The notes under the pieces are model-generated. The model had not been told where the DNA came from, did no database searches, and saw nothing but the letters and a program-made list of their open reading frames with translations. A program made the translations under genes and the position numbers. Positions 2,703 to 45,301 of a stretch of DNA of 64,000 nucleotides are shown here, piece by piece (position 1 is the first letter of the stretch; each line of letters begins with the position of its first letter). Location of the stretch: IMG/VR virus record IMGVR_UViG_3300042544_001887. The stretch is one strand, 5' to 3'. The DNA is from a virus. Lineage: Duplodnaviria > Heunggongvirae > Uroviricota > Caudoviricetes.

Positions 2703-2794
2703 GATACACTGACGCCGCGTGGTTACGGCTATACAACTAGGCTTATCGCAACCTAATAACCATAGAGGGTTGAGTCGAGGTTGAGCAGTGTATC
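2703..2794 (+). ncRNA. structured spacer RNA closed by 9-bp stem (gatacactg/cagtgtatc)
   Basis: perfect long-range inverted repeat with internal hairpins between tRNAs. Confidence 0.35.
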
Positions 2795-2811
2795 TTTTAA
2801 ACTATGAATAT

Positions 2812-2887
2812 TGTTCCATAGCACAACTGGTTAGTGCAGGCGACTGATAATCGTCAGATCTGAGTTCGAGTCTCGGTGGAACAACCA
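2812..2887 (+). tRNA. tRNA-Ile (GAT)
   Basis: acceptor tgttcca/tggaaca, loop ctGATaa, T-loop ttcgagt, CCA. Confidence 0.7.
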
Positions 2888-3100
2888 AAATTAGTAGGAA
2901 GACAGCCAGTGGAAGAACAGGAATATTACGCACCGTGGGAATGGCAGCCGATCGAATTCATGCCTAACGGATGTAATGATGTTGTTGTAAGAGACCGTGA
3001 AGGCAACACTCGAGAATTGTGTTCATGCGATTACTGGTGGTTGTCAGCAGAAGATAAAAAGATTTACACATCTTTTAGATTTGTGTAATTTTAACATAAT

Positions 3101-3175
3101 GCCGTGCTTGGTGTAAGGGTAGCATACCGCACTGTGACTGCGTTGGAATAGGTTCAAATCCTATACACGGTACCA
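3101..3175 (+). tRNA. tRNA-His (GTG)
   Basis: loop ctGTGac, T-arm atagg-ttcaaat-cctat, CCA; acceptor has G1-U72 wobble. Confidence 0.6.
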
Positions 3176-3187
3176 ATACAAATTTAA

Positions 3188-3781
3188 TTATTGTACTTTT
3201 TTACTTAATACTCTGTATATGTCGTTATAGTTATTTTTATATTTCGACTCATTGACAATTTCGTAGTTATATAATTGGTTTAATACCTTTAAACCATGTA
3301 TTCCATCTTTAGTATCTAATTGATTGCATGTACCTATTACATGATCTGACAATGACAAACTATAATCAAATAGTTCTTCCCAAGTATTATTATATGGATA
3401 CAGTTCTATAATTACCATTTGATGTTTTTTAGTGTAATTAAAAAAATCACATTTCATAGCTGTGATGTTTGGGTAGTTGTGCATTGTGTTAAACAGTGCT
3501 AGGGTGTTTTGTTTTTTTAAAAACTTATCCGCACAAGTCATCTTATGAAGATCACGCAACTCTTCGTATGTTTCAATATAGTGAAACGTATCTATTGCAG
3601 TAACATGTGTCTTTGGAAATGAACGACAAATTGCCGCAGCAACTCTGCCGCCAAATGTGCCAGCACACAAAACGTCACGTATATCATTGTTTGATATATG
3701 ATCGCAAATATTAACTATTTCCTCGTATCCAGTCCAATTTGGAAAGTCCATTAGTATATTATATTTGCTTTTATATGACAT
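3188..3781 (-). CDS. hypothetical protein (possible SAM-dependent methyltransferase-like; VLCAGTFGG)
   Basis: 197-aa ORF, only - strand gene nearby; glycine-rich motif I-like stretch. Confidence 0.4.
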   Translation of the reverse strand: MSYKSKYNILMDFPNWTGYEEIVNICDHISNNDIRDVLCAGTFGGRVAAAICRSFPKTHVTAIDTFHYIETYEELRDLHKMTCADKFLKKQNTLALFNTMHNYPNITAMKCDFFNYTKKHQMVIIELYPYNNTWEELFDYSLSLSDHVIGTCNQLDTKDGIHGLKVLNQLYNYEIVNESKYKNNYNDIYRVLSKKVQ

Positions 3782-3837
3782 GTGATATTCCTTGTATAAC
3801 TAAAACGTATTTATAAAACTTAAAATAAGAGAGATAA

Positions 3838-4269
3838 ATGATGAGCAAATATGACACATATAACAGATTAACCGAACCTGTAAAATCATTTGATGAACTA
3901 CGCGGCCGTGCGTTAACTCGTGTTGAAAAAATCGGAAACGACGAATTGCGTTTCTACTTAACAGATGAACATTATGTTCGTATGCATCACAATCAAGATT
4001 GTTGCGAATCAGTAACAATCGAGGATATTGTTGGTGATTTAGACGATTTAGTCGGAACTCCGTTGCTGGTTGTCGAAGAACGTGTTTCTCGTAACGATGG
4101 CGGTACAGATGAACTGTATTGTGATTCATACACTTGGACATACTACAGTTTTCGCACTATCAAAGGTAGTGTAGATATTCGTTGGTATGGAAGTAGCAAT
4201 GGATACTATTCAGAAGGTGTTGACATTGACATTGTAACACCCGATGCAGAAAATCAAGTAGAAATCTAA
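3838..4269 (+). CDS. hypothetical protein
   Basis: 143-aa ORF. Confidence 0.45.
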   Translation: MMSKYDTYNRLTEPVKSFDELRGRALTRVEKIGNDELRFYLTDEHYVRMHHNQDCCESVTIEDIVGDLDDLVGTPLLVVEERVSRNDGGTDELYCDSYTWTYYSFRTIKGSVDIRWYGSSNGYYSEGVDIDIVTPDAENQVEI

Positions 4270-15366: not shown

Positions 15367-15663
15367 ATGACCGAAAAAACTGTAGATGAACGTATTCGTC
15401 AGCATTACCAAGTAAATAAAGGCGAATGGCTTGTTGAAAAAGGCAAAGTGAAAGAGGCAAAGCTGCTGAAAGAAGCTTGCGAAACAATTGAACGTCTGCG
15501 TAATCAAGCTGCTAATTCTGAGCGTCTTTATTGGGAAATGCTTAGAAAAACAGAGGCAAAACAGTCTGAGCTTTCAAAGCGTGAAAAGGATATTGCAGAG
15601 CGTGAAGAAAAGTTTGAGGCTCGCAAGGCTTCTTTCATTCGAGATTTTGAAAAATGGGTGTAA
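15367..15663 (+). CDS. hypothetical coiled-coil protein
   Basis: 98 aa, charged heptads. Confidence 0.45.
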   Translation: MTEKTVDERIRQHYQVNKGEWLVEKGKVKEAKLLKEACETIERLRNQAANSERLYWEMLRKTEAKQSELSKREKDIAEREEKFEARKASFIRDFEKWV

Positions 15664-16475: not shown

Positions 16476-19400
16476 ATGAGATTAAGAAACCTTTTTGAAG
16501 TACAAGTGCAACCAGGTGAACGCAGAGGATTTTCGCTGCGGTTGAAGCGTCTTGAAGATTTGCAAGTAAAAATTGCAGAAATACAAAATACTATAAGCGA
16601 ACTTGGTAATGTTAGCGTTCCAGAAAACTTAAAAAAACAAATGGAAGATCTTATCGATGCTGCTAAAATAGAAAAAGAAAAAATCTATGCAGAAGTATCT
16701 GACGCAGAAGTAAAAAATCCAAGAATTCAAGGAATACCTGGATCTGTCATGAAGTTACTTAGAGGCATAGAAAAAAATGCTTCAACTATAATGAACGCAT
16801 ACAGAAAAACTGGAAAATATCTCTATAGAGGAATCAAATCTTCCGAAGACGCACTTTATGGAAAACCTTTTGACATCAGAAAAGCCAAGGATAGTAATGT
16901 AGATTTAAGTAATGCATTAAATCAATCCTTAGCAGACCAAGGATTTAATGCTAGAAGAGACAACACTACTTTTACTTCTGGTTCTTATAATCAGGCTAGT
17001 AATTACGGTACTGTGTATATAATATTTCCTAGAGATGGGTTCTCATTCCATTACAGTAAAAAGATAAGAGACCTTGTTTTAGATACCGGCAAGATTGATA
17101 TGTTACTGGATCCCGAAATAACAGGTTATATCGAAAGTGCTATACGTTCTAACTGGAGCAATCTCAAAAACTATTTTTCTTATAAATTTAGTGGAGATAA
17201 ATTCTTTACAGGTTATGAATATCAAAAAGATTTAGATGGGTTACAACGTGCAGTAGCAGACGGTGTGCTTCCACAAGAATTTGCAAAATATAAGACTTTT
17301 TATGATCTAGTTGATCCTGCAAAAGTTATAGCTAATTTTCAATACAATCAAACTGATCTCGACAGTGCTATAACTTCCGAACATGAAGTCATGATTACAG
17401 GACCGTATTATGCTGTTAAAACAGAGTCCTTTCAAGATTATATTGACAAATATATTAAAATGACAGCAAATGGTGAATTTGATGTCACTCCAGATAACAA
17501 AAAAGAAAAAACTACTTTAAATCAAAAAATACAATCTATAGTAGGCGGTTCCGCGCCTGAGTTTGCAATAGGAGATTGGGTGCAGCATAAGTACGAAGGA
17601 TTTAAAGGTGAAGTTGTTGACTATTACCATACCAATGACTTTGTTCAAATTAAAGATTATGCCGGAAAACTAAAATTAGTCAATAAGAAAAATATTGATA
17701 AAATTAAAACTCCTGAGATGCCCGACTACCAGCCCGGCGATAAAGTTTATCTAAGAACAAAAGACACAGAATGGGAATATTATAATAATAAAAAATACAA
17801 GGTAGTAGACTCTGATAAGTTTACCGTAACAGTTCAAAAAGGCAGTTACGACACCACAATTACATTACCTAAATTGTTAACCGAACCTGCTCCTAAATTT
17901 GATACCAAAGATCCAAGTGTAGGAGACACAGTTCATGTTACCAAGGGCGATTTTGAAAACATGTACGGAACTATTACATATGTTTCTAGTTACAGTAAAG
18001 ATATTGATGTTGACTTCGGAGACAGCGATTCGCACACTGTTCAAAAAGGATCTTACGAAGTTATTGATCCTGCAACAAAACCTGCAGATGCAAACTCTAT
18101 TGCATCAAAGTTTAAAGAAGGTGATTACGTTAGAATCTCTGACGACGGGTTTGATTACAGTGGTCTTGTAGCGGTAATTAATAAACCTGGTTTATCAAAA
18201 TCAAGAGTATATCCGTTCGGCGAAAAAAGTTATGCTTTAAGTATAAAAAATTCTAGATTAAAAGCTATTGATGAAGATGAATTTAAAAAACAATCGTTTA
18301 GCATAACAGATCAAGTAGTTGTATCTGGCGGCAAGCATGATGGAAAGAGTGGAAAACTTAATTATGTAAGCTTTGATGGAACTATGGAAATAGTTGTCAG
18401 TAGTGGTAACACCATAGAAGTACCCGGAAAATATGTTTTTAATCAAAACGTAAATGGTTCTCCTGAAAATAACGAGAATAAAGAAACAATTAAAAAAGGT
18501 GATTTTGTAAAAATCTCAGACGACTCGGACTTGTTCCCAGGTTCTGTAGCAAAAGTAGTTGTAAAGAATTCCGGCGAAAAATCTACAATATTAGTAAACA
18601 ACGACAACAATCTCGATTATATTATTGATACAAAATATCTAACCAAGATTGATGAAAATGAATTTAACAATAAAAAGCTGTCAACCGGCGACGAAGTCAA
18701 TGTCACAGACGGATATTATAAAGGAAAAACTGGAAAAATAAAATCGTTTGGGACTGATGGTCCTGTAAGAGTTGATATAACTTCGCCGTCCACAGGGGAT
18801 ACATTTACAATTAAGGTACTTCCACAATACTTGGAAAAAATAAATCAAAGCAGTGACGACTTAATTGATTTAATGGATCTTGAGTTTGAACCGATGGACG
18901 AGCCTACTGATTTTAAAAATAATGAAACTAAAAAATTTAAAGTCGGCGACAGCGTAAAAGTAATTAATGGTAAACACAAAGGAAAAACTGGAAAAATAAA
19001 TTACCTATATACGTATACAAAAGAAGCGTATGTTGACTTCGACGGTGAATATCACGACATTGAGTTAAAAGACTTAGAGTTAGACAAAGAAGAATCAAAA
19101 ACTGATAGCAATTTTAACAAAGACGAATTAAAAAAGCTAATCAGTCAAGGAAAAGAAAAAGGTTTTATAACCTATAATCAACTAAACGATGTAGTGCCTT
19201 CGGACAAAGTTACTTCTGAAGAAATTGAAGATATAATGGATATGTTAAATGAATTAGGAATCAATTTAGTTGATGCTGAAAAAGACTCGGCTCCATCAGG
19301 TGAAACTCCACAGGAATTACAAGCAAGAATAAACGATCCAGATACAAAAGCGTTCCTTAAACAAGCATTTGCAGATCCTGATGTAAAAGAACTAGTGAGT

Positions 19401-28036: not shown

Positions 28037-29113
28037 ATGAAATATGACGCTCTAGTCTTTATCGGCCGGTTCCAGCCGTTTCACAATGGACACAAGGCAA
28101 TTGTTGATGCCGCCCTTGAACGAGCAAAAGAAGTAATCATTGTAGTTGGTTCTAGCTTTTCTTCAAGGAATATCCGAAATCCTTTTACATTTGATGAACG
28201 CAGACAGATGATTAAAGCTGTGTTCCCGCAGGAGAACGTTAAAGTCGTTCCTGTTAGCGATTACCCGTATGATGATAATAAATGGGTTCATGCTGTGCAA
28301 AACGTAGTTCGCGGTGCGATGCGTTGGAGTGCTGATCCGATTCGAGTTGGCCTTATCGGCCATGAAAAGGACGGATCTAGCTACTACTTGAAAATCTTCA
28401 AGCCGCTAGGTTGGGGTAACGTTAGCGTAAACAACGTCGACGGCGTTAATGCAACAGACATTCGCAATATGTTGTTTGCATCTGCTCCGGATAGTTCAAC
28501 TATTCTTCCAACTATTGTCCATAAAATTTATGAACAATTTGTTCATAAAACTATGAATAAACAGGCAGTAGAAACTATGCACTCACTGATTATAAAAGAT
28601 GGAGTTGTATCACCATGGTTTGAAACGCTGTTCCAAGAATACCAAATGATCAAGAAGTACAAGGAAGCATGGAAAGCTGCTCCATTCCCTCCTACTTTCA
28701 TGACTGTTGATGCTGTTGTTGTTCAAAGCGGACACATCCTTCTTGTGAAACGTGGCGACATGCCTGGTAAAGGTCTTTGGGCTTTGCCCGGTGGGTTCCT
28801 TAATCAAGGTGAAACAATGCTTGACGGTGCCATTCGTGAACTCAAAGAAGAAACTAAAATCAAAGTTGCTGTGCCTGTACTAAAGGGTTCTATTAAAGCG
28901 TTTAACACTTTTGATGCACCTAACCGCAGCCAGCGTGGACGTACTATTACACAGGCGTTCTACATTGACCTTGGCTTTGCAGAAGAACTTCCTAAAGTAA
29001 AAGGCAGCGACGATGCAGAAAAAGCGTTTTGGGTTCCGTTTCACAAAGTGAAACAAGAACTTATGTTCGAAGATCACTTTCATATTATCGACCATTTTGT
29101 TAACATTGGGTAA
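28037..29113 (+). CDS. nadM: bifunctional NMN adenylyltransferase / Nudix hydrolase (NadM-Nudix type)
   Basis: N-terminal GRFQPFHNGH (HxGH) nucleotidyltransferase motif; C-terminal Nudix box GGFLNQGETMLDGAIRELKEETKI. Confidence 0.85.
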   Translation: MKYDALVFIGRFQPFHNGHKAIVDAALERAKEVIIVVGSSFSSRNIRNPFTFDERRQMIKAVFPQENVKVVPVSDYPYDDNKWVHAVQNVVRGAMRWSADPIRVGLIGHEKDGSSYYLKIFKPLGWGNVSVNNVDGVNATDIRNMLFASAPDSSTILPTIVHKIYEQFVHKTMNKQAVETMHSLIIKDGVVSPWFETLFQEYQMIKKYKEAWKAAPFPPTFMTVDAVVVQSGHILLVKRGDMPGKGLWALPGGFLNQGETMLDGAIRELKEETKIKVAVPVLKGSIKAFNTFDAPNRSQRGRTITQAFYIDLGFAEELPKVKGSDDAEKAFWVPFHKVKQELMFEDHFHIIDHFVNIG

Positions 29114-29463: not shown

Positions 29464-30918
29464 ATGACAAACGTACTAAATCTACTAACTGCTATTATTC
29501 GCACTGACAGCTATAAGCTGAGCCAGTGGCTACAATATCCAAAGGACACTGTCCGTATTAGTTCATACATCGAAAGTCGTGGTGGCGAAGACGAATCGGT
29601 ATTCTTTGGTCTACAAGCGTTCATTAAACAGTATATGATGACACCGATTACTGTAGCAGATATCAATCGTGCTGAACTTATTGTAAAAGCACACGGACTG
29701 CCTTTCAACAGAGAAGGTTGGGAAATCATCGTCAAAGAATACGGCGGCATTCTGCCGTTGGAAATCGAAGCTGTTCCTGAAGGTACCGTTATGGAGACCC
29801 ATAACGTGCAAGTGCAGATTGTTAATACCGATCCACGCTTGTTCTGGTTGACCTCATATGTTGAAACTGCAATGCTTCGCGGCATTTGGTATCCTTCAAC
29901 TGTTGCTACAAAGAGCCGTAAAATGAAGAAACTCATTGCTGCTGCTCTTGAACTAACTAGCGACGTTCCTGTTAACGATCAAATCATGTTCAAGCTACAC
30001 GACTTTGGTGCTCGTGGTGCAAGTTCTTCTGAAACTGCAATGCTTGGTGGTATGGGTCACCTTGTTAACTTTATGGGTACTGACACTGTGGAAGCACTTG
30101 TTGGTGCAATGGAATATTACAACACAGACTCTGTACCTGGGTTTAGTATTCCTGCTAGTGAACACTCAACAATCACTAGCTGGGGTGGTCCTGCTGGAGA
30201 AGTTGTAGCATTTGAAAACATGATCAATACATTTGCCGGTCCCGGTAAACTGTATGCTTGTGTTAGCGACAGCTACGACATTTACTCTGCCGCACGTGAC
30301 TTGTGGGGCGGCGTTCTAAAAGAAAAAGTCATTGCTGCCGGCGGCACCTTGGTGGTACGTCCGGACTCAGGTGATCCTACTACAGTTCCGATTGAAGTTA
30401 TTGGCATCCTTATGGATCGCTTTGGATACACTGTTAACAGCAAAGGCTACCGAGTACTTCCTCCTTACATCCGTCTAATCCAAGGAGATGGTATCAACGA
30501 AAAAACTTTGCCTAAGATCTTGTCAAACATGGTTGAAGCAGGTTACAGCATTGATAACATTGCATTTGGTATGGGCGGTGGCTTGCTACAAGCGTGGAAC
30601 CGTGATACACTCAAGTATGCTATGAAAGCTAGTGCTAGACAGGATACTGAGGGTGTATGGCACGATGTCTTTAAAGATCCGATCTCAGACCGCGGCAAAG
30701 TGTCTAAAAAAGGTCGTCTTGGATTAGTTTATGAGTGCGGGATTGGAAACTGCGGTTATAGAACTCTTCCAAAGTCGGTTGCTGACAAAAAAGGCAACCT
30801 ACTGAGAACTGTATATCGCAACGGTGAACTCTTAATTGAGGACACTTTTGAAAATATTCGCAATCGTGCAAAACTTAAAGTGGAGGAATACACTCATGAT
30901 GTCGTTGAAAGATATTGA
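29464..30918 (+). CDS. nadV: nicotinamide phosphoribosyltransferase (NAMPT/NadV)
   Basis: N-terminal TDSYK motif, 484 aa, NAPRTase-family signatures. Confidence 0.9.
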   Translation: MTNVLNLLTAIIRTDSYKLSQWLQYPKDTVRISSYIESRGGEDESVFFGLQAFIKQYMMTPITVADINRAELIVKAHGLPFNREGWEIIVKEYGGILPLEIEAVPEGTVMETHNVQVQIVNTDPRLFWLTSYVETAMLRGIWYPSTVATKSRKMKKLIAAALELTSDVPVNDQIMFKLHDFGARGASSSETAMLGGMGHLVNFMGTDTVEALVGAMEYYNTDSVPGFSIPASEHSTITSWGGPAGEVVAFENMINTFAGPGKLYACVSDSYDIYSAARDLWGGVLKEKVIAAGGTLVVRPDSGDPTTVPIEVIGILMDRFGYTVNSKGYRVLPPYIRLIQGDGINEKTLPKILSNMVEAGYSIDNIAFGMGGGLLQAWNRDTLKYAMKASARQDTEGVWHDVFKDPISDRGKVSKKGRLGLVYECGIGNCGYRTLPKSVADKKGNLLRTVYRNGELLIEDTFENIRNRAKLKVEEYTHDVVERY

Positions 30919-35248: not shown

Positions 35249-35277
35249 TTGACATAGAGTAAAACATACACTATATT
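35249..35277 (+). promoter_or_regulatory. strong sigma70 consensus promoter (tRNA operon)
   Basis: TTGACA-N17-TATATT. Confidence 0.6.
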
Positions 35278-35316
35278 AACTAAACAAACAAAAAATAAAA
35301 CGTAACGCAAGTTACA

Positions 35317-35329
35317 CGCTCTTTGACAA
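35317..35329 (+). promoter_or_regulatory. boxA-like antitermination element
   Basis: CGCTCTTTGACAA vs E. coli rrn boxA TGCTCTTTAACAA. Confidence 0.45.
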
Positions 35330-35414
35330 TTTAGATTTGTTGTTTACATCGTAAGATGTAGTAAACAACGCTCACTTAGACGCAAGTCGATAATAGTGGG
35401 GGTAAGTAGAGAAT

Positions 35415-35466
35415 GACTCTACTTACACGTATTAACTGGTAGCTGGTTCGATTCCGGCGTAGAGTC
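35415..35466 (+). ncRNA. truncated tRNA-like hairpin RNA
   Basis: 7-bp acceptor-like stem gactcta/tagagtc plus ctgg-ttcgatt-ccgg T-arm, no D/anticodon arms. Confidence 0.25.
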
Positions 35467-35823
35467 TAGGTGACTATGAAAGGTTTGATTCCTTTGTACT
35501 ACTGGTGTAGCAAATTGGACGACAGTCCGCCAAGTTAGTACGTGTAAGTAGAGTCGAGCAATTGAATTATTCGATGCTGTGAAGTATTTCTAACAGCATT
35601 TGATGATTGTGCCATGTGGTAAAAAGATTGCTTACAGCTAGAAAAAAGCTGACTACAATAATACACGGTAATAGAAAAGACCAAATCTTTTTTAACATCG
35701 TGTATTTATAGAAAAAACTAGTGCAGGAGGATAACTCTGTAAGTCACAAGAACAACGGTGCCGCATGACTCAATTGCGGTTAAATTACCCGAGTAGTGCC
35801 GGGCAGAGCCAAACACACAATGT

Positions 35824-37736: not shown

Positions 37737-37812
37737 GTCGCGTTAGCAAAAGGTTAATGCGTGTCCTGTGCAAAGGACAAGGACGGTGGTTAAACTCCCC
37801 GACGCGACTCCA
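37737..37812 (+). ncRNA. atypical tRNA-like gene (perfect acceptor+CCA, 8-nt anticodon-position loop, degenerate T-arm)
   Basis: acceptor gtcgcgt/acgcgac, D-stem gca/tgc, stem tgtcc/ggaca with loop tgtgcaaa, no TTC T-loop. Confidence 0.35.
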
Positions 37813-41376: not shown

Positions 41377-42138
41377 ATGAATTATCACATAAAAAACTTT
41401 ATTATCCCTATACATGTCTTATTTTTAGTATCACTAATTGGTATGTATTTAAATATAATCGATTTTCATATTTGGTTATTTTTAATAGGGTGGACTTTGA
41501 TCTATGGGCTAGGTCTTGTTGTAGGATTTCATAAATTGTTATCCCATAGCTCTTTTAAAACAAACAAATACATATCTTATGTGTTAGCTTACTTAGGATG
41601 CTTAGGAATTAGCGGATCACCTATATGGTGGGCTGCTATACATAGAGGACATCATCATGCTCATACTGAGACTGAAAAAGACCTTCAAAGTCCACGTCGT
41701 GGATGGCTTACATCTTACATAGGTTGGCAGTTTGGTGAAGAAACAAGTAAAATAAGTTTAAAGTATGCATCTGATTTAATAAAAGATCCTTTTTATCTTT
41801 TTTTACACAAGAATTATAGATTAGTTGTTTGGAGTACAGTGATTATTGTTGGTATGTTGTCACCATCTGTTGCAGTTTCATTATTAATATTTCCGATGAT
41901 TGCAGCACACCATGGAGAAAATATTACCAATTCATTTGGTCATAGCAGGTTTGCTGGTTACAGAAATTTTAATACCAACGACGACACTATAAATAACCCA
42001 TTGTTAGCATTTATAACTTGGGGTCAGCTTTTGCATAACAATCATCATGCTAAGCCAAATAACGATAGTTTTGCCATTAAATGGTTTGAATTTGATCCAA
42101 CTTCTCCTTTTGTATGGATTTTAAAAAAACTAAAATAG
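41377..42138 (+). CDS. membrane fatty-acid desaturase (stearoyl-CoA desaturase-like)
   Basis: three His boxes HKLLSH, HRGHHHAH, HNNHHAKP plus TM helices. Confidence 0.75.
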   Translation: MNYHIKNFIIPIHVLFLVSLIGMYLNIIDFHIWLFLIGWTLIYGLGLVVGFHKLLSHSSFKTNKYISYVLAYLGCLGISGSPIWWAAIHRGHHHAHTETEKDLQSPRRGWLTSYIGWQFGEETSKISLKYASDLIKDPFYLFLHKNYRLVVWSTVIIVGMLSPSVAVSLLIFPMIAAHHGENITNSFGHSRFAGYRNFNTNDDTINNPLLAFITWGQLLHNNHHAKPNNDSFAIKWFEFDPTSPFVWILKKLK

Positions 42139-42195
42139 TTACAATATAAACATTTTTCTGTAACAGAAAAAAAATAAAAAAGTTGAAAAAAGTGG

Positions 42196-42224
42196 TTGAC
42201 CTTTGAGGCAACATGCACTATATT
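42196..42224 (+). promoter_or_regulatory. strong sigma70 consensus promoter
   Basis: TTGACC-N17-TATATT. Confidence 0.6.
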
Positions 42225-42255
42225 AACTACATAAGCAGCAAATGTGTTGCTTACA

Positions 42256-42268
42256 CGCTCTTTGAAAA
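42256..42268 (+). promoter_or_regulatory. boxA-like antitermination element
   Basis: CGCTCTTTGAAAA; same 22-nt leader as at 35308-35334. Confidence 0.45.
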
Positions 42269-42269
42269 T

Positions 42270-43370
42270 TTAGTAACTTAACTGCAATAATCAACAGTTT
42301 AGCGAAAGGCTAAAGATTGTGGTTGTGCTGAGTAATTAACAGTTTAAATCAGCAAGTGATGCGTGATTAGGTAAACTGTTGTTTATTGCAGTTTTTAAGA
42401 TGGGCGGCTTAGCGTCCACGTAAGGGTAAGTGCGGTAACGCACCCAAAGGCAGGTTTCCTATAAACTGCCGCCAGCAATGGTCCACCTAAGCAAGCCTGA
42501 ACTAAGGTTGACTCGGTTTAACCCGAAAGCAACCTCCGTCCTTAGGCGGGCGGTAGGCAGTAAGTTAGAGTTGTAGTCCGAAAGGATAGGCACAGAGCCG
42601 GTCGGTGAGTGCTAAGAGGCTGTGGTGGCTGAACTGCAACATACCAAACTAACGAATGCTGAAGGTTAACAGGTAGCTACACTGTCTGAGCCCGCAAGCA
42701 AAGGCATGGTAGCATCACAAGAGTGGAAGGGTTAGGCCCCGGATACTTGAAGTGACGTTGAGTAGCTCGCAAGGCAAAAGACAGTCGGTGTGTTGTATAC
42801 TGTATCTAACAAGGTATGGTGCAACTGGGACAGCACATCGAAGTAGGTTCGCAATATTGCATAACGGTAATGCAATCGTCTTATGAAACGATGGATTGTA
42901 GGTTCAACTCCTACTATTGAAACAAAAGCGAAAGACTGTCCCGGTACGTTGTGAAAGGTGGTTAATGCCACACTCGCAAGAGAATGTGGTCTACGGATGC
43001 TCGCAAGGCTGATGTAGTTGTTCGGAAAGATAGCGTAAGGGTTTAGCGACTCTGAACTGCTCGCAAGGCAGACGAAGGATAGAAGGACGAGTAGCAACGT
43101 GCGACGAGAGAAACGCCACTCTCCAAAAAAGGCACCACTGGGAGATACAGGATGACCGTAAAAGGCTTCTGTGGATAACGAGAGAACGTGGCTCGCAAGG
43201 CTAACGGTAATGCTCAAAGGCTCCTAACGCAAGGCATAATCTCAGCCTATGCAAAAGTTTAAGTTTTAACTAACTTAACTTGTTGAACAGTTTTCGAGTT
43301 CCGACCCACTTGGAAGTAGGCGACTACTCCATTTCCGAGACTGTTCAACTAGTTAAGTTTCTACTTTAAA
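42270..43370 (+). ncRNA. large structured non-coding RNA candidate (about 1.1 kb, ORF-free, GNRA-rich)
   Basis: no credible ORF on either strand; seven cgcaag motifs, four as GCTCGCAAGGC; many local and long-range stems; lies between boxA leader and tRNAs. Confidence 0.4.
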
Positions 43371-43371
43371 C

Positions 43372-43456
43372 AATACACAAGGCGTAGGCCACGCCGATGT
43401 TATGGTAACAGGTTTGCCTTGTGGCAGGCTCGGTGGTTCGATTCCACAGTGTATTG
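43372..43456 (+). ncRNA. tRNA-like RNA (acceptor, D-arm and T-arm present; anticodon arm aberrant)
   Basis: acceptor aatacac/gtgtatt, D-stem ggcg/cgcc, T-loop ttcgatt; no CCA. Confidence 0.3.
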
Positions 43457-43472
43457 TTTAAAATAGAATTAT

Positions 43473-43548
43473 TGCGGGGTAGAGAAGCGGCATCTCGTTT
43501 GGCTCATAACCAAAAGATCGTGGGTTCGAGTCCCACCCATCGCAACCA
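43473..43548 (+). tRNA. tRNA-Met/fMet-like (CAT)
   Basis: D-stem gaga/tctc, stem tttgg/ccaaa loop ctCATaa, T-arm gtggg-ttcgagt-cccac, 3' end cgcaacca like initiator tRNA; acceptor pairing imperfect. Confidence 0.55.
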
Positions 43549-43708
43549 AAATTTAGCTTAAGCTAAAATTTATATTATTTAAAGAAGTGAGATTTAAAAA
43601 CATTCTAGTTCTCACTATAGGCGTAAAAAGAAACACATAGTTGTTTGAAGGCAGCTGGGCCCGTTAAAGTTGTACTAGACAAATGCTGATGCCATCTTTA
43701 AATAATTT

Positions 43709-43792
43709 GCCCTAGTGGTGTAATGGTAGCCACGGAAGACTCAAAATCTTTTGCCGCAAGGCGTGGGGGTTCAAGTCCCTCCTGGGGCACCA
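43709..43792 (+). tRNA. tRNA-Leu (CAA), type II
   Basis: acceptor gccctag/ctggggc, loop ctCAAaa, long variable arm, T-loop ttcaagt, CCA. Confidence 0.7.
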
Positions 43793-43801
43793 ATTCTTTA
43801 T

Positions 43802-43885
43802 GCCCGCTTGGTGAAATTGGTAGCCGCGGCAGACTTAAAATTTGTTTCCTCTGGAGTGCCGGTTCGAGTCCGGCAGCGGGCACCA
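43802..43885 (+). tRNA. tRNA-Leu (TAA), type II
   Basis: acceptor gcccgct/agcgggc, loop ctTAAaa, long variable arm, T-loop ttcgagt, CCA. Confidence 0.7.
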
Positions 43886-43899
43886 ATAAAAAACAATCA

Positions 43900-43924
43900 A
43901 AAGGCACCCTAGGGTGCCTTTTCT
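43900..43924 (+). terminator. intrinsic terminator
   Basis: ggcaccc-ta-gggtgcc stem then TTTTCT. Confidence 0.6.
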
Positions 43925-43925
43925 C

Positions 43926-43955
43926 TTGACTAGGACTTGCAAACTGTTATACTAT
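43926..43955 (+). promoter_or_regulatory. sigma70-like promoter
   Basis: TTGACT-N18-TGtTATACT. Confidence 0.4.
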
Positions 43956-43975: not shown

Positions 43976-45301
43976 ATGCGAACACAACCTGACTTTATTA
44001 TTCGTGATCTTGAAAATCACAATAGTCGCCTTGATAAAGAGGCAATTCTTGCTGACGCAGTTAAAGAAGGACTAAACGAGTTTTTTGATGGCGTTCGTAT
44101 GGCCCTCGACTCACTAGTTACATTTGGTGTAAAACAGGTGCCGATTAAAGAGAAGGATGAAGGACAAGGGTTGGCTTGGACGGTGTTTTTGCATCTTGCA
44201 AACGACCTTCAGTATCGTAATCTAACTGGTCATGCAGCACGTGATGCAATCAATCTTGCTATGGAGGTTGCTACACAACGTCAGTGGAACGATTGGTACC
44301 GTCGTATTCTTATTAAGGATCTACGCTGCGGTGTTTCAGAAAAAACTGTTAATAAAGTTTGCAAAAATCATCCGCAATATCAGGTTCCGGTTTTTGAATG
44401 TCAACTTGCACATGATAGTGCAAATCATGAAGACAAAATGAAGGGCAAAAAACAAATCGAAGTCAAGCTCGACGGCGTTCGTGTAATTACTGTGATCAAC
44501 GACATTCACGGCAAAAGCATCGAAATGTTTAGCCGCAACGGCAAACAGTTTCATAACTTTGATCACATCATTGAAGAAATTCGTGCTGTGCTCAAAGACA
44601 ATCCCACTCCATATCCGCTTGTTCTAGATGGCGAAATTATGAGTGCTACGTTTCAAGATCTTATGAAGCAAGTGCAGCGTAAGTCGAACGTAAACGCAAA
44701 AGATGCAGTGCTAAACTTGTTTGATATTATTCCACTTGGTTGTTTCAAGAATAAGAAGTGGGACAAGCCACAGAACTTCCGTAGTGAACTTGTTAATCAT
44801 TGGGTAGAAGACCATGCAGAGACGCTACAGCACGTTACAGCACTAGGTTGGGAAACTGTAGATCTAGACACAGCAGAAGGCTATCGACGCTTTGTAGAGC
44901 TTAATAAGACGGCTGTAGACGGTGGGTATGAGGGCGTTATGATCAAGGACGTGGATGCACCCTATGAATGTAAACGTAGCCATAGTTGGCTTAAAGCAAA
45001 ACCATTTATTGAAGTAACATTGGAGATTGTAGGAGTTGAAGAAGGAACAGGACGAAATGAAGGAAGACTCGGGGCTATGGTATGCTCTGGGCAAGATGAC
45101 GGGAAGGATATTAGGGTCAACGTTGGCAGTGGTTTTACAGATGATCAACGATCCCAATTTTGGAATGCTCGGGATGCTGCTATTGGTAATCTTGTTGAAG
45201 TTCGGGCAGATGCTGTAACACAGAATCAAGACGGCACTTACAGCCTACGATTTCCACGTTTTAAAACGTTCCGTGGTTTTGAGAAGGGTGAAAAACTATG
45301 A
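43976..45301 (+). CDS. ATP-dependent DNA ligase (T4-type)
   Basis: KxDGxR adenylation motif EVKLDGVRVI; AGAGGAGATACTATG RBS. Confidence 0.85.
   Translation: MRTQPDFIIRDLENHNSRLDKEAILADAVKEGLNEFFDGVRMALDSLVTFGVKQVPIKEKDEGQGLAWTVFLHLANDLQYRNLTGHAARDAINLAMEVATQRQWNDWYRRILIKDLRCGVSEKTVNKVCKNHPQYQVPVFECQLAHDSANHEDKMKGKKQIEVKLDGVRVITVINDIHGKSIEMFSRNGKQFHNFDHIIEEIRAVLKDNPTPYPLVLDGEIMSATFQDLMKQVQRKSNVNAKDAVLNLFDIIPLGCFKNKKWDKPQNFRSELVNHWVEDHAETLQHVTALGWETVDLDTAEGYRRFVELNKTAVDGGYEGVMIKDVDAPYECKRSHSWLKAKPFIEVTLEIVGVEEGTGRNEGRLGAMVCSGQDDGKDIRVNVGSGFTDDQRSQFWNARDAAIGNLVEVRADAVTQNQDGTYSLRFPRFKTFRGFEKGEKL

Follow-up and report, generated by a model that had tools for sequence, protein, structure and literature searches.

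A probable full-length GOLLD RNA in the tRNA island of an uncultivated large or jumbo phage

The 64,000-nt stretch of phage DNA analyzed here (hereafter the window) very probably encodes a full-length GOLLD RNA of ~860 nt on its plus strand, from position 42398 to about 43256, in the tRNA island of an uncultivated large or jumbo phage. Our high confidence applies to the best explanation as a whole, i.e., to GOLLD identity, operon, and cage placed together. The locus is an additional example of an already known family that is among the largest non-coding RNAs of bacteria and phages and for which RNA-only nanocages have been shown recently. It stands out as a clean full-length GOLLD in a jumbo-phage tRNA island, with added interest in the covariation of its 5' domain, its rrn-like candidate leader, the fast-changing anticodon loop of its pseudo-tRNA, and a strongly conserved 3' hairpin, while leader and linker leave the kind of element unchanged: it is still GOLLD. 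The RNA consists of the following 2 domains:

42398-42784, plus strand: GOLLD 5' domain (homology onset at 42396-42398 in relatives; covarying helices)
42785-43250, plus strand: GOLLD 3' domain (match to Rfam RF02032 and covariation)

The covariance model RF02032 (GOLLD) of Rfam matched positions 42785-43248 of the plus strand with 191.8 bits at a gathering score of 150 (E 1.7e-52), and the match spans the model completely (positions 1-416 of 416). This model represents only the 3' domain of GOLLD, which is the conserved part of the family, whereas the 5' domain is variable (PMC12286853, PMC12990946). Models of ROOL, HEARO, group I and group II introns, and tmRNA gave no match at E<=1 across 41900-43700. 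An earlier note on this DNA had guessed at an RNA of the GOLLD or ROOL class and had suggested a search with Rfam models of GOLLD, ROOL, HEARO, and the introns; the GOLLD half of that guess is borne out by a full-model match above the gathering score and by covariation over ~860 nt, while ROOL, HEARO, and the introns drop out.

Relatives were collected with a degenerate 3'-domain pattern that found 35 viral-metagenome loci and with the neighboring ligase as a query, which retrieved 80 loci of related phages on contigs of up to 382 kb (IMG/VR). The alignment used below (A1) comprises 22 sequences, namely the window and 21 relatives from viral metagenome contigs with 69-89% identity to it. Comparison of the window with these 21 relatives by blastn placed the limits of homology at 42396-42398 and 43256-43267, and these limits define an RNA of ~860 nt with 2 domains. 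The block 42398-43256 thereby shows the giant size (about 700-850+ nt) and the less conserved 5' domain that go with GOLLD membership, and the G+C content, which is ~30% in the flanking genes, reaches 45-53% between 42400 and 43300. The 1.1-kb span from 42270 to 43370 that had originally been proposed as a single RNA is non-coding and structured as described, but the conserved RNA within it covers only 42398 to ~43256.

An RNAalifold consensus of the 22-sequence alignment contains 203 pairs, and 138 of these carry compensatory double changes. Across the consensus pairs, 97.2% of the alignment cells are paired compared to 33-40% after a shift of the 3' partners by 1-3 columns, pairs with double changes drop to 30-44 upon the same shift, and none of 500 shuffles reached the observed values of paired fraction and double changes. 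Both domains share in this support, and compensatory changes are found in nearly all of the helices 1-24 that build the 5' domain in the consensus structure. The GOLLD locus is thus a non-coding RNA with 2 covariation-supported domains, and the ornate fold for which a covariation check on related phages had been suggested is upheld over ~860 nt by 21 relatives. Since the published GOLLD alignment from the cryo-EM study covers the 3' end only, our alignment adds covariation in the 5' domain. Covarying antiparallel runs were also searched outside the nested structure, with pairs then counted on the alignment, and this revealed 3 extra pseudoknot or tertiary helices with 98.2% paired cells compared to 33-55% when slid. 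The helices that matter here are as follows:

42407-42412 with 42487-42492, plus strand: loop-to-strand helix of the first-hairpin loop (covaries)
42785-42791 with 42835-42841, plus strand: base helix of the RF02032 model
42826-42834 with 42934-42943, plus strand: linker-closing helix (covaries)
42957-42962 with 43134-43139, plus strand: extra helix (covaries)

The base helix crosses the linker-closing helix and forms a pseudoknot with it. The RNA has at least 3 pseudoknot or tertiary helices, for which pairing within one molecule and between molecules looks the same at the level of sequence.

All 7 CGCAAG motifs that had been pointed out before were found, each on the plus strand (42693, 42768, 42975, 43002, 43062, 43194, and 43228), so that 7 copies lie in 540 nt compared to 27 across the window with both strands counted. 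The longer repeat reported in 4 places exists in all of them, displaced by 1-2 nt from where it had been put (GCTCGCAAGGC at 42765, 42999, 43059, and 43191; chance expectation 0.01), and corresponds to a recurrent hairpin:

42765-42775, 42999-43009, 43059-43069, and 43191-43201, plus strand: GCUCGCAAGGC hairpin in 4 copies (3-bp stem, CGCAA loop, U.G closing)

Rfam renders these hairpins as <<<<_____>>>>, i.e., as CGCAA pentaloops closed by U.G, and the previous description of the CGCAAG motifs as GNRA tetraloops therefore does not hold; true GNRA tetraloops are present as well. The CGCAA loops of all 4 hairpins are invariant in 21-22 of the 22 sequences. Besides several GNRA tetraloops, the other hairpin loops include an invariant UAGC (43044-43047) and an invariant RUAAUCUCA. 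Both inner hairpins of a P21-type junction are present (43038-43053 and 43057-43071) with invariant UAGC and CGCAA loops, respectively, though their assignment to P21a and P21b is approximate. A fifth copy of GCTCGCAAGGC at 15619 lies in apparently ordinary coding sequence (a lysine/glutamate-rich frame) and was treated as a chance occurrence.

On either side, the conserved RNA is bordered by a strong hairpin:

42277-42396, plus strand: 5' leader hairpin module (arms 42280-42306 and 42367-42393, 27 nt, 89% complementary)
43272-43359, plus strand: 3' hairpin module (20-bp closing stem; adjoins GOLLD, outside GOLLD homology)

The stem gttgaacagt/actgttcaac that had been noticed in this region is real and forms the inner part of the 20-bp stem that pairs 43272-43291 with 43340-43359. 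Both modules lie directly against GOLLD and are much more stably folded than shuffled sequences (-39 kcal/mol and z -4.4 for the 5' hairpin; -34.7 kcal/mol and z -5.4 for the 3' hairpin), their 5' arms share AACTTAACT..AACAGTTT, which is found only twice in the window, and 42271-42283 is complementary to 43351-43363 so that the flanks could bracket GOLLD. The 3' hairpin is also more conserved than GOLLD itself: In relatives, its identity is 96.6-97.7% where that of GOLLD reaches only 81-88%, its 60-nt core does not vary, and its outer stem is compensated in relative L009. One could therefore imagine that the whole of 42270-43370 is a single mature RNA, a GOLLD variant to which the flanking hairpins belong as integral peripheral domains, but we consider this unlikely. 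No homologue of the 5' hairpin was found in any relative; at its site, relatives carry another stem-closed insert (L041) or none, and in L017 and L019, where the insert is absent, the boxA described below lies 23-27 nt from the start of GOLLD. Between GOLLD and the 3' hairpin, L041 and L007 have a 66-nt insert and L009 has a gap of ~165 nt, and the constructs of solved GOLLD structures begin and end at the limits of homology. The segments 42270-42397 and 43260-43370, previously counted as part of the large RNA, are instead separate hairpin modules outside the conserved GOLLD and possibly serve as double-strand-specific processing sites. Distribution of the 3' hairpin is limited to the closest clade: It occurs on 9 viral contigs, of which all 8 that were checked carry GOLLD and the ninth (L120) is a 1.2-kb stretch.

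The conserved RNA includes a variable linker that in the window holds a tRNA-like element:

42845-42933, plus strand: GOLLD variable linker (content differs among relatives)
42850-42923, plus strand: tRNA-like cloverleaf in the linker (Rfam tRNA 44.8 bits versus a threshold of 29; also found by ARAGORN)

ARAGORN draws a cloverleaf with D-, anticodon-, and T-arms and reports the element as "tRNA-???" with the anticodon tatg. The hairpin attgcat/atgcaat and the T-arm-like gtagg/cctac of the earlier note are real and turn out to be the D-arm (42856-42876) and T-arm (42898-42914) of this element; like the other hairpins named there, they exist within 1-3 nt of the positions given for them. The anticodon loop CUUAUGAA has 8 nt instead of the canonical 7 nt, the acceptor stem is mismatched at the top (C/A and G.A), which leaves 5 pairs instead of the canonical 7 bp, and CCA is not encoded. 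Among the relatives, conservation is seen in the D- and T-arms and covariation in the anticodon stem, but the anticodon loop differs between close relatives even on otherwise identical cloverleaf bodies (one and the same stem, attcc/ggaat, carries attgaac, cttctaa, atgctaa, attgataa, or attttga). Lys- and Arg-type anticodons recur and loops of 6 nt and 8 nt also occur, the truncated acceptor is common to most relatives including the element of Roseobacter phage DSS3_MAL1 annotated as tRNA-Arg, and 5 relatives have no cloverleaf in the linker at all. The 8-nt loop, the mismatched acceptor, the variable anticodons, and the cloverleaf-free relatives together argue against a decoding tRNA and in favor of a tRNA-like domain.

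tRNAs inside the GOLLD linker are already known, and the idea of storage has been raised (PMC12990946). In such a scenario, GOLLD would mainly be the precursor or store of a real tRNA, with RNase P/Z excising the cloverleaf and the cage delaying its maturation ("inhibited storage"). The score of the cloverleaf above the tRNA threshold speaks for this view, as do U33 and a purine at position 37 that are kept in most relatives' cloverleafs and a canonical-looking cloverleaf in relative L036, in which all 7 bp of the acceptor stem are formed and CCCA comes next. We still find it improbable, given the irregular loop, top acceptor pairs, and 3' end of the window element, the acceptor truncation that even the annotated tRNA-Arg of DSS3_MAL1 shares, the lack of any cloverleaf in some relatives, and anticodons that change between near-identical bodies, which would scramble the amino-acid identity of a stored tRNA.

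The same fast-changing anticodon loop could be viewed differently if the caged tRNA-like domain were the working part of GOLLD in this clade. The 12-14 copies displayed inside each cage could then divert anticodon nucleases of the host, or other defense or modification enzymes directed at tRNAs, in the manner of a decoy or sponge, and the anticodon loop would be evolving in an arms race. A conserved D/T-arm body with U33 and a purine at position 37, combined with a loop that changes faster than its surroundings (5 variants on one stem), is the context for this idea, and this phage also encodes a T4 Rnl1-like tRNA-repair ligase. We consider the idea very doubtful and keep to a tRNA-like domain within GOLLD as the preferred reading.

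The surroundings of the locus are those of a phage. The window holds 33 tRNA calls, all on the plus strand, together with phage-type genes for an ATP-dependent DNA ligase, a T4 Rnl1-like RNA ligase, NAMPT, and NMNAT-Nudix. GOLLD lies between a gene of the fatty-acid-desaturase family (41377-42138) and the ATP-dependent DNA ligase gene (43976-45301), and this ligase is at most 39% identical to that of any isolate. The location beside a tRNA array in a phage or prophage that is typical of GOLLD is thus found here, including relatives in IMG/VR, and agrees with the previous description of a phage-borne RNA next to a tRNA cluster. This location and the tRNA-like pieces inside the RNA might also bring to mind another large RNA (ROOL, HEARO, a group I/II intron, tmRNA, or an rRNA fragment) or a decayed, functionless spacer of tRNA pseudogenes, but the probability of this is negligible, as Rfam models at E<=1 gave only GOLLD, tRNA, and one chance miRNA match across 41900-43700, a scan of the entire window at E<=0.05 added no families besides GOLLD, tRNA, and chance matches, and the extensive compensatory change rules out a decaying spacer. 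The matches to miRNA and plastid-UTR models in these E-value-level scans overlap tRNAs and were rejected as chance.

Hardly any credence can be given to a protein-coding minus strand, which would have to rely on the sole long ORF of the region (42732-43217, minus strand, 161 aa): It has a TTG start and no match in Pfam, the corresponding open frame in relatives varies from 78 to 260 codons, is interrupted, and is broken even in 88%-identical relatives, and substitutions track the base-pair covariation of the RNA. The plus strand of the region is purine-rich (GC and AT skew are positive), so that stop codons are depleted on the opposite strand. The ORF is thus an artefact of composition, and we rejected it as a gene. 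The ~1.8 kb between the desaturase-family and ligase genes contains no credible ORF, in agreement with the earlier note, and the conserved coding frame that this note had named as one possible refutation was sought in the homologous regions of relatives and not found.

Upstream and downstream of GOLLD, the following features suggest a dedicated transcription unit:

42196-42224, plus strand: sigma-70-type promoter-like site TTGACC-17 nt-TATATT (10 of 12 consensus matches)
42233-42240 with 42245-42252, plus strand: leader hairpin of 8 bp (boxB-like position)
42253-42272, plus strand: putative CAC-boxA-spacer-like element ACACGCUCUUUGAAAAUUUA (read from the sequence)
43359-43468, plus strand: stem-closed tRNA-like module (20-bp stem around 4 hairpins, including the T-arm-like GGUGGUUCGAUUCCAC)
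43473-43548, plus strand: tRNA-Met(CAU) (Rfam, ARAGORN)
43574-43585 with 43695-43706: closing inverted repeat of a stem-closed spacer between tRNA-Met and tRNA-Leu(CAA)
43709-43792, plus strand: tRNA-Leu(CAA) (Rfam, ARAGORN)
43802-43885, plus strand: tRNA-Leu(UAA) (Rfam, ARAGORN)
43899-43930, plus strand: terminator-like palindrome AAAAGGCACCCU/AGGGUGCCUUUU (12-nt arms, 100% complementary, U-rich tail)

The promoter-like site is conserved in relatives (TTGACC..TATATT in L041, with ~83% identity over 42167-42276) and has a paralogous copy at 35250-35278 of the window. Behind promoter and hairpin, the leader appears to be of the rrn type, for which the boxA is UGCUCUUUA and the spacer ACAAUUUA; GCTCTTTGAAAA has only one exact copy in the window. 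With E. coli rrnG (PMC2724277) as the reference, ACACGCUCUUUGAAAAUUUA agrees with boxA and spacer at 14 of 16 positions and a boxA copy at 35316 at 15 of 16. The module of hairpin and boxA recurs at 35303-35333, where the whole unit of promoter, hairpin, and boxA (35250-35333) heads a large tRNA cluster. The boxA leader that had been proposed ahead of the RNA is supported by the resemblance to rrnG and by its recurrence in relatives, although a strict boxA-like sequence precedes GOLLD in only 8 of 23 distinct loci; in these, its distance from the promoter stays at 57-61 nt.

As in rrn leaders (boxB-boxA-spacer; NusB/NusE/NusA), the phage leader has a hairpin followed by CAC-GCUCUUUG-AAAAUUUA. 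This arrangement lies some 25-40 nt behind a strong promoter and precedes a long untranslated transcript. Unlike in rrn leaders, the phage copy heads a tRNA/GOLLD operon instead of an rRNA operon, and position 8 of its boxA is G instead of A. Downstream of GOLLD, the tRNA-like and tRNA genes described before are present as one tRNA-like module and 3 tRNAs. The module (-44.8 kcal/mol, z -5.4) was called neither by ARAGORN nor by Rfam at E<=1, and in relative L039, it is found directly upstream of GOLLD. The terminator-like palindrome, whose prediction is listed on the minus strand and whose plus-strand tail UUUUCUCUU was read off directly, likely marks the end of the non-coding operon.

From these features, GOLLD would be the first part of an untranslated operon of ~1.7 kb that runs from the promoter at 42196-42224 to the terminator near 43899 in the order promoter, hairpin and rrn-like boxA, GOLLD, hairpin, tRNA-like module, tRNA-Met, 2 tRNA-Leu, and terminator. 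The boxA would recruit Nus factors of the host and thereby make RNA polymerase resistant to Rho as in rRNA operons. An antitermination leader of the rrn type makes sense here because Rho would otherwise have access to an untranslated transcript of 1.7 kb. The cuts that release GOLLD (RNase III type and RNase P/Z) may then be provided by the stem-closed modules on its flanks and by the tRNAs. Together with the pseudo-tRNA in the linker, this defined candidate transcription unit provides handles for studying the processing, assembly, and cage contents of GOLLD.

Two GOLLD RNAs have been solved as cages. The env-38 GOLLD from a marine metagenome (833 nt; PDB 9MEE) is a D7 nanocage of 14 copies in which the loops L21a and L21b form kissing contacts that bridge the 2 half-shells (Kretsch et al. 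2025, PMC12286853). The Streptococcus agalactiae GOLLD is a 12-mer (PDB 9L0R) whose 3' domain alone gives a 10-mer (9LMF), so that the oligomer number depends on peripheral helices (Wang et al. 2025, as summarized in PMC12990946). In the solved cages, rings are built from the 3' domains and caps from the 5' domains, with the linker on the inside (PMC12286853, PMC12990946). Cage formation by the window RNA is expected from family membership and conserved loops rather than from a residue-level mapping. Its copies would build a closed dihedral nanocage by themselves, with no protein needed, as in the homologues of 12-14 copies, probably with the 3' domains in rings and the 5' domains in caps, and the linker with its tRNA-like domain would face the cavity to place 12-14 tRNA-like domains inside. 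No function has been established for GOLLD in the literature searched up to 2026. GOLLD expression in a Lactobacillus prophage is cited in PMC12286853 as rising in phage lytic growth. As our best guess, the cage may sequester or display the tRNA-like domains, possibly together with ribosomal or tRNA-binding factors, in lytic growth as part of the phage takeover of the host's tRNA and translation economy.

The window RNA resembles env-38 in belonging to the same Rfam family, in its 2 domains of ~400 nt each, in a linker after the first hairpin of the 3' domain, in having both inner P21-type hairpins (a resemblance by approximate mapping), in its richness in GNRA- and CGCAA-type loops, and in its place beside tRNA genes. 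Its primary sequence, however, is almost unrecognizable: With profiles of our clade, nhmmer recognized only 41 nt of env-38, located in the 3' domain, and nothing of the 5' domain; the env-38 copy used came from a supplementary PDF and has 815 nt instead of 833 nt (~18 nt missing). The linker also differs, being a tRNA-like cloverleaf in the window and a disordered loop of ~40 nt in env-38. With the S. agalactiae GOLLD, a cage-forming homo-oligomer, the window RNA as read from sequence alone shares the conserved 3' domain; it is longer (about 860 nt compared to 700 nt) and has the approximate P21b equivalent at 43057-43071, whereas the S. agalactiae RNA is without P21b and several 5' helices.

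Parallels for the linker exist in the GOLLD of Mycobacterium/Mycolicibacterium tRNA arrays (Morgado et al. 2020, cited in PMC12990946) and in that of Roseobacter phage DSS3_MAL1 (MN602268), of which only a "tRNA-Arg" is annotated. Both share with the window a tRNA-shaped linker element and the tRNA-array location. Unlike these examples, the window element is non-canonical (8-nt loop, mismatched acceptor) and has a variable anticodon loop. ROOL, an octameric cage of phages and prophages, shares with GOLLD the niche beside tRNA islands and the kind of RNA-only cage, but GOLLD is unrelated to it in sequence and fold.

Beyond the close relatives in A1, a profile of the 5' domain detected distant GOLLD loci in Roseobacter phage DSS3_MAL1, in 3 further loci (L005, L032, and L002), and in one MAG contig; this type of 5' domain is thus widespread among environmental phage GOLLDs. 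The only matches to phages in GenBank were distant ones that cover GOLLD in part at 68-78% (in Roseobacter, Phaeobacter, and Sinorhizobium phages). A scan of genome collections yielded 3 MAG contigs, only one of them with this GOLLD type and binned as Gammaproteobacteria, a binning that says nothing reliable about the phage host. Among the 55 loci of related phages with enough upstream sequence, GOLLD adjoins the ligase gene in only 5, which points to an accessory or mobile element within this lineage.

In this phage's tRNA arrays, the usual spacer seems to be a module closed by a stem. The modules, together with a second leader and two unusual tRNAs, lie at the following window positions:

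2241-2322, long-armed tRNA (tRNA 35 bits; tRNA-Sec 37.3 bits, below threshold)
35250-35822, second promoter-hairpin-boxA leader and non-coding stretch (TTGACA-17-TATATT, GTAACGCAAGTTAC, CGCTCTTTGACAATTTA)
37737-37812, odd tRNA call (2-nt "anticodon" by ARAGORN; Rfam tRNA 43.2 bits)
43359-43468, stem-closed tRNA-like module (four hairpins, one of them a T-arm, within a 20-bp stem)
43574-43706, spacer module between tRNA-Met and tRNA-Leu, with a perfect 12-bp inverted repeat as its closing stem

The tRNA-like module was called by neither ARAGORN nor Rfam. Because it is 88% identical in L015 and its counterpart in L039 (both compared phage or viral-metagenome loci) lies upstream of GOLLD, this module moves relative to the large RNA. 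The 88-nt hairpin preceding it (43272-43359) shares 96.6-97.7% identity with its copies in relatives whose adjoining GOLLD sequences reach only 81-88%; its 60-nt core is invariant, and the outer stem shows compensation in a further compared locus, L009. The spacer module is conserved at about 90% in the compared locus L041.

Between the second leader and tRNA-Asn lie approximately 490 nt of non-coding sequence. This stretch folds far above shuffled controls (z -7.9), with a stem of approximately 24 bp around hairpins that carry the T-loop-like GGTTCGATTCC and GGTTTGATTCC, and parts of it are conserved at about 78% in L041 and another compared locus, L034. It matched no Rfam family. The long-armed tRNA was missed by ARAGORN.

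The repeat GCTCGCAAGGC, found four times inside GOLLD in hairpins with a CGCAA loop, has a fifth exact copy at 15619-15629 within apparently ordinary, lysine/glutamate-rich coding sequence; the copy looks like a chance match rather than a GOLLD-related element.

In Roseobacter phage DSS3_MAL1 (MN602268), GOLLD at 2730-3503 is without annotation in the GenBank record except for its linker element, which is listed as "tRNA-Arg", and a tmRNA gene (3586-3994) directly follows the RNA.

Elsewhere in the window, protein genes were found as follows:

16476-19535, 1019-aa protein with KOW motifs (Spt5/NusG-like) and a sigma-70 region 1.1 domain
21523-22680, T4 Rnl1-like RNA ligase (tRNA repair)
28037-29113, NMNAT-Nudix fusion
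29464-30918, NAMPT (NAD salvage)
41377-42138, membrane fatty-acid-desaturase-family gene, directly upstream of the GOLLD operon

The ligase, the NMNAT-Nudix fusion and NAMPT look like a counter-defence set directed against host systems that cleave tRNAs and deplete NAD. Genes of the fatty-acid-desaturase family are uncommon in phage genomes. The combination of KOW motifs and sigma-70 region 1.1 in a single protein is a transcription-factor-like architecture that is unusual for a phage.
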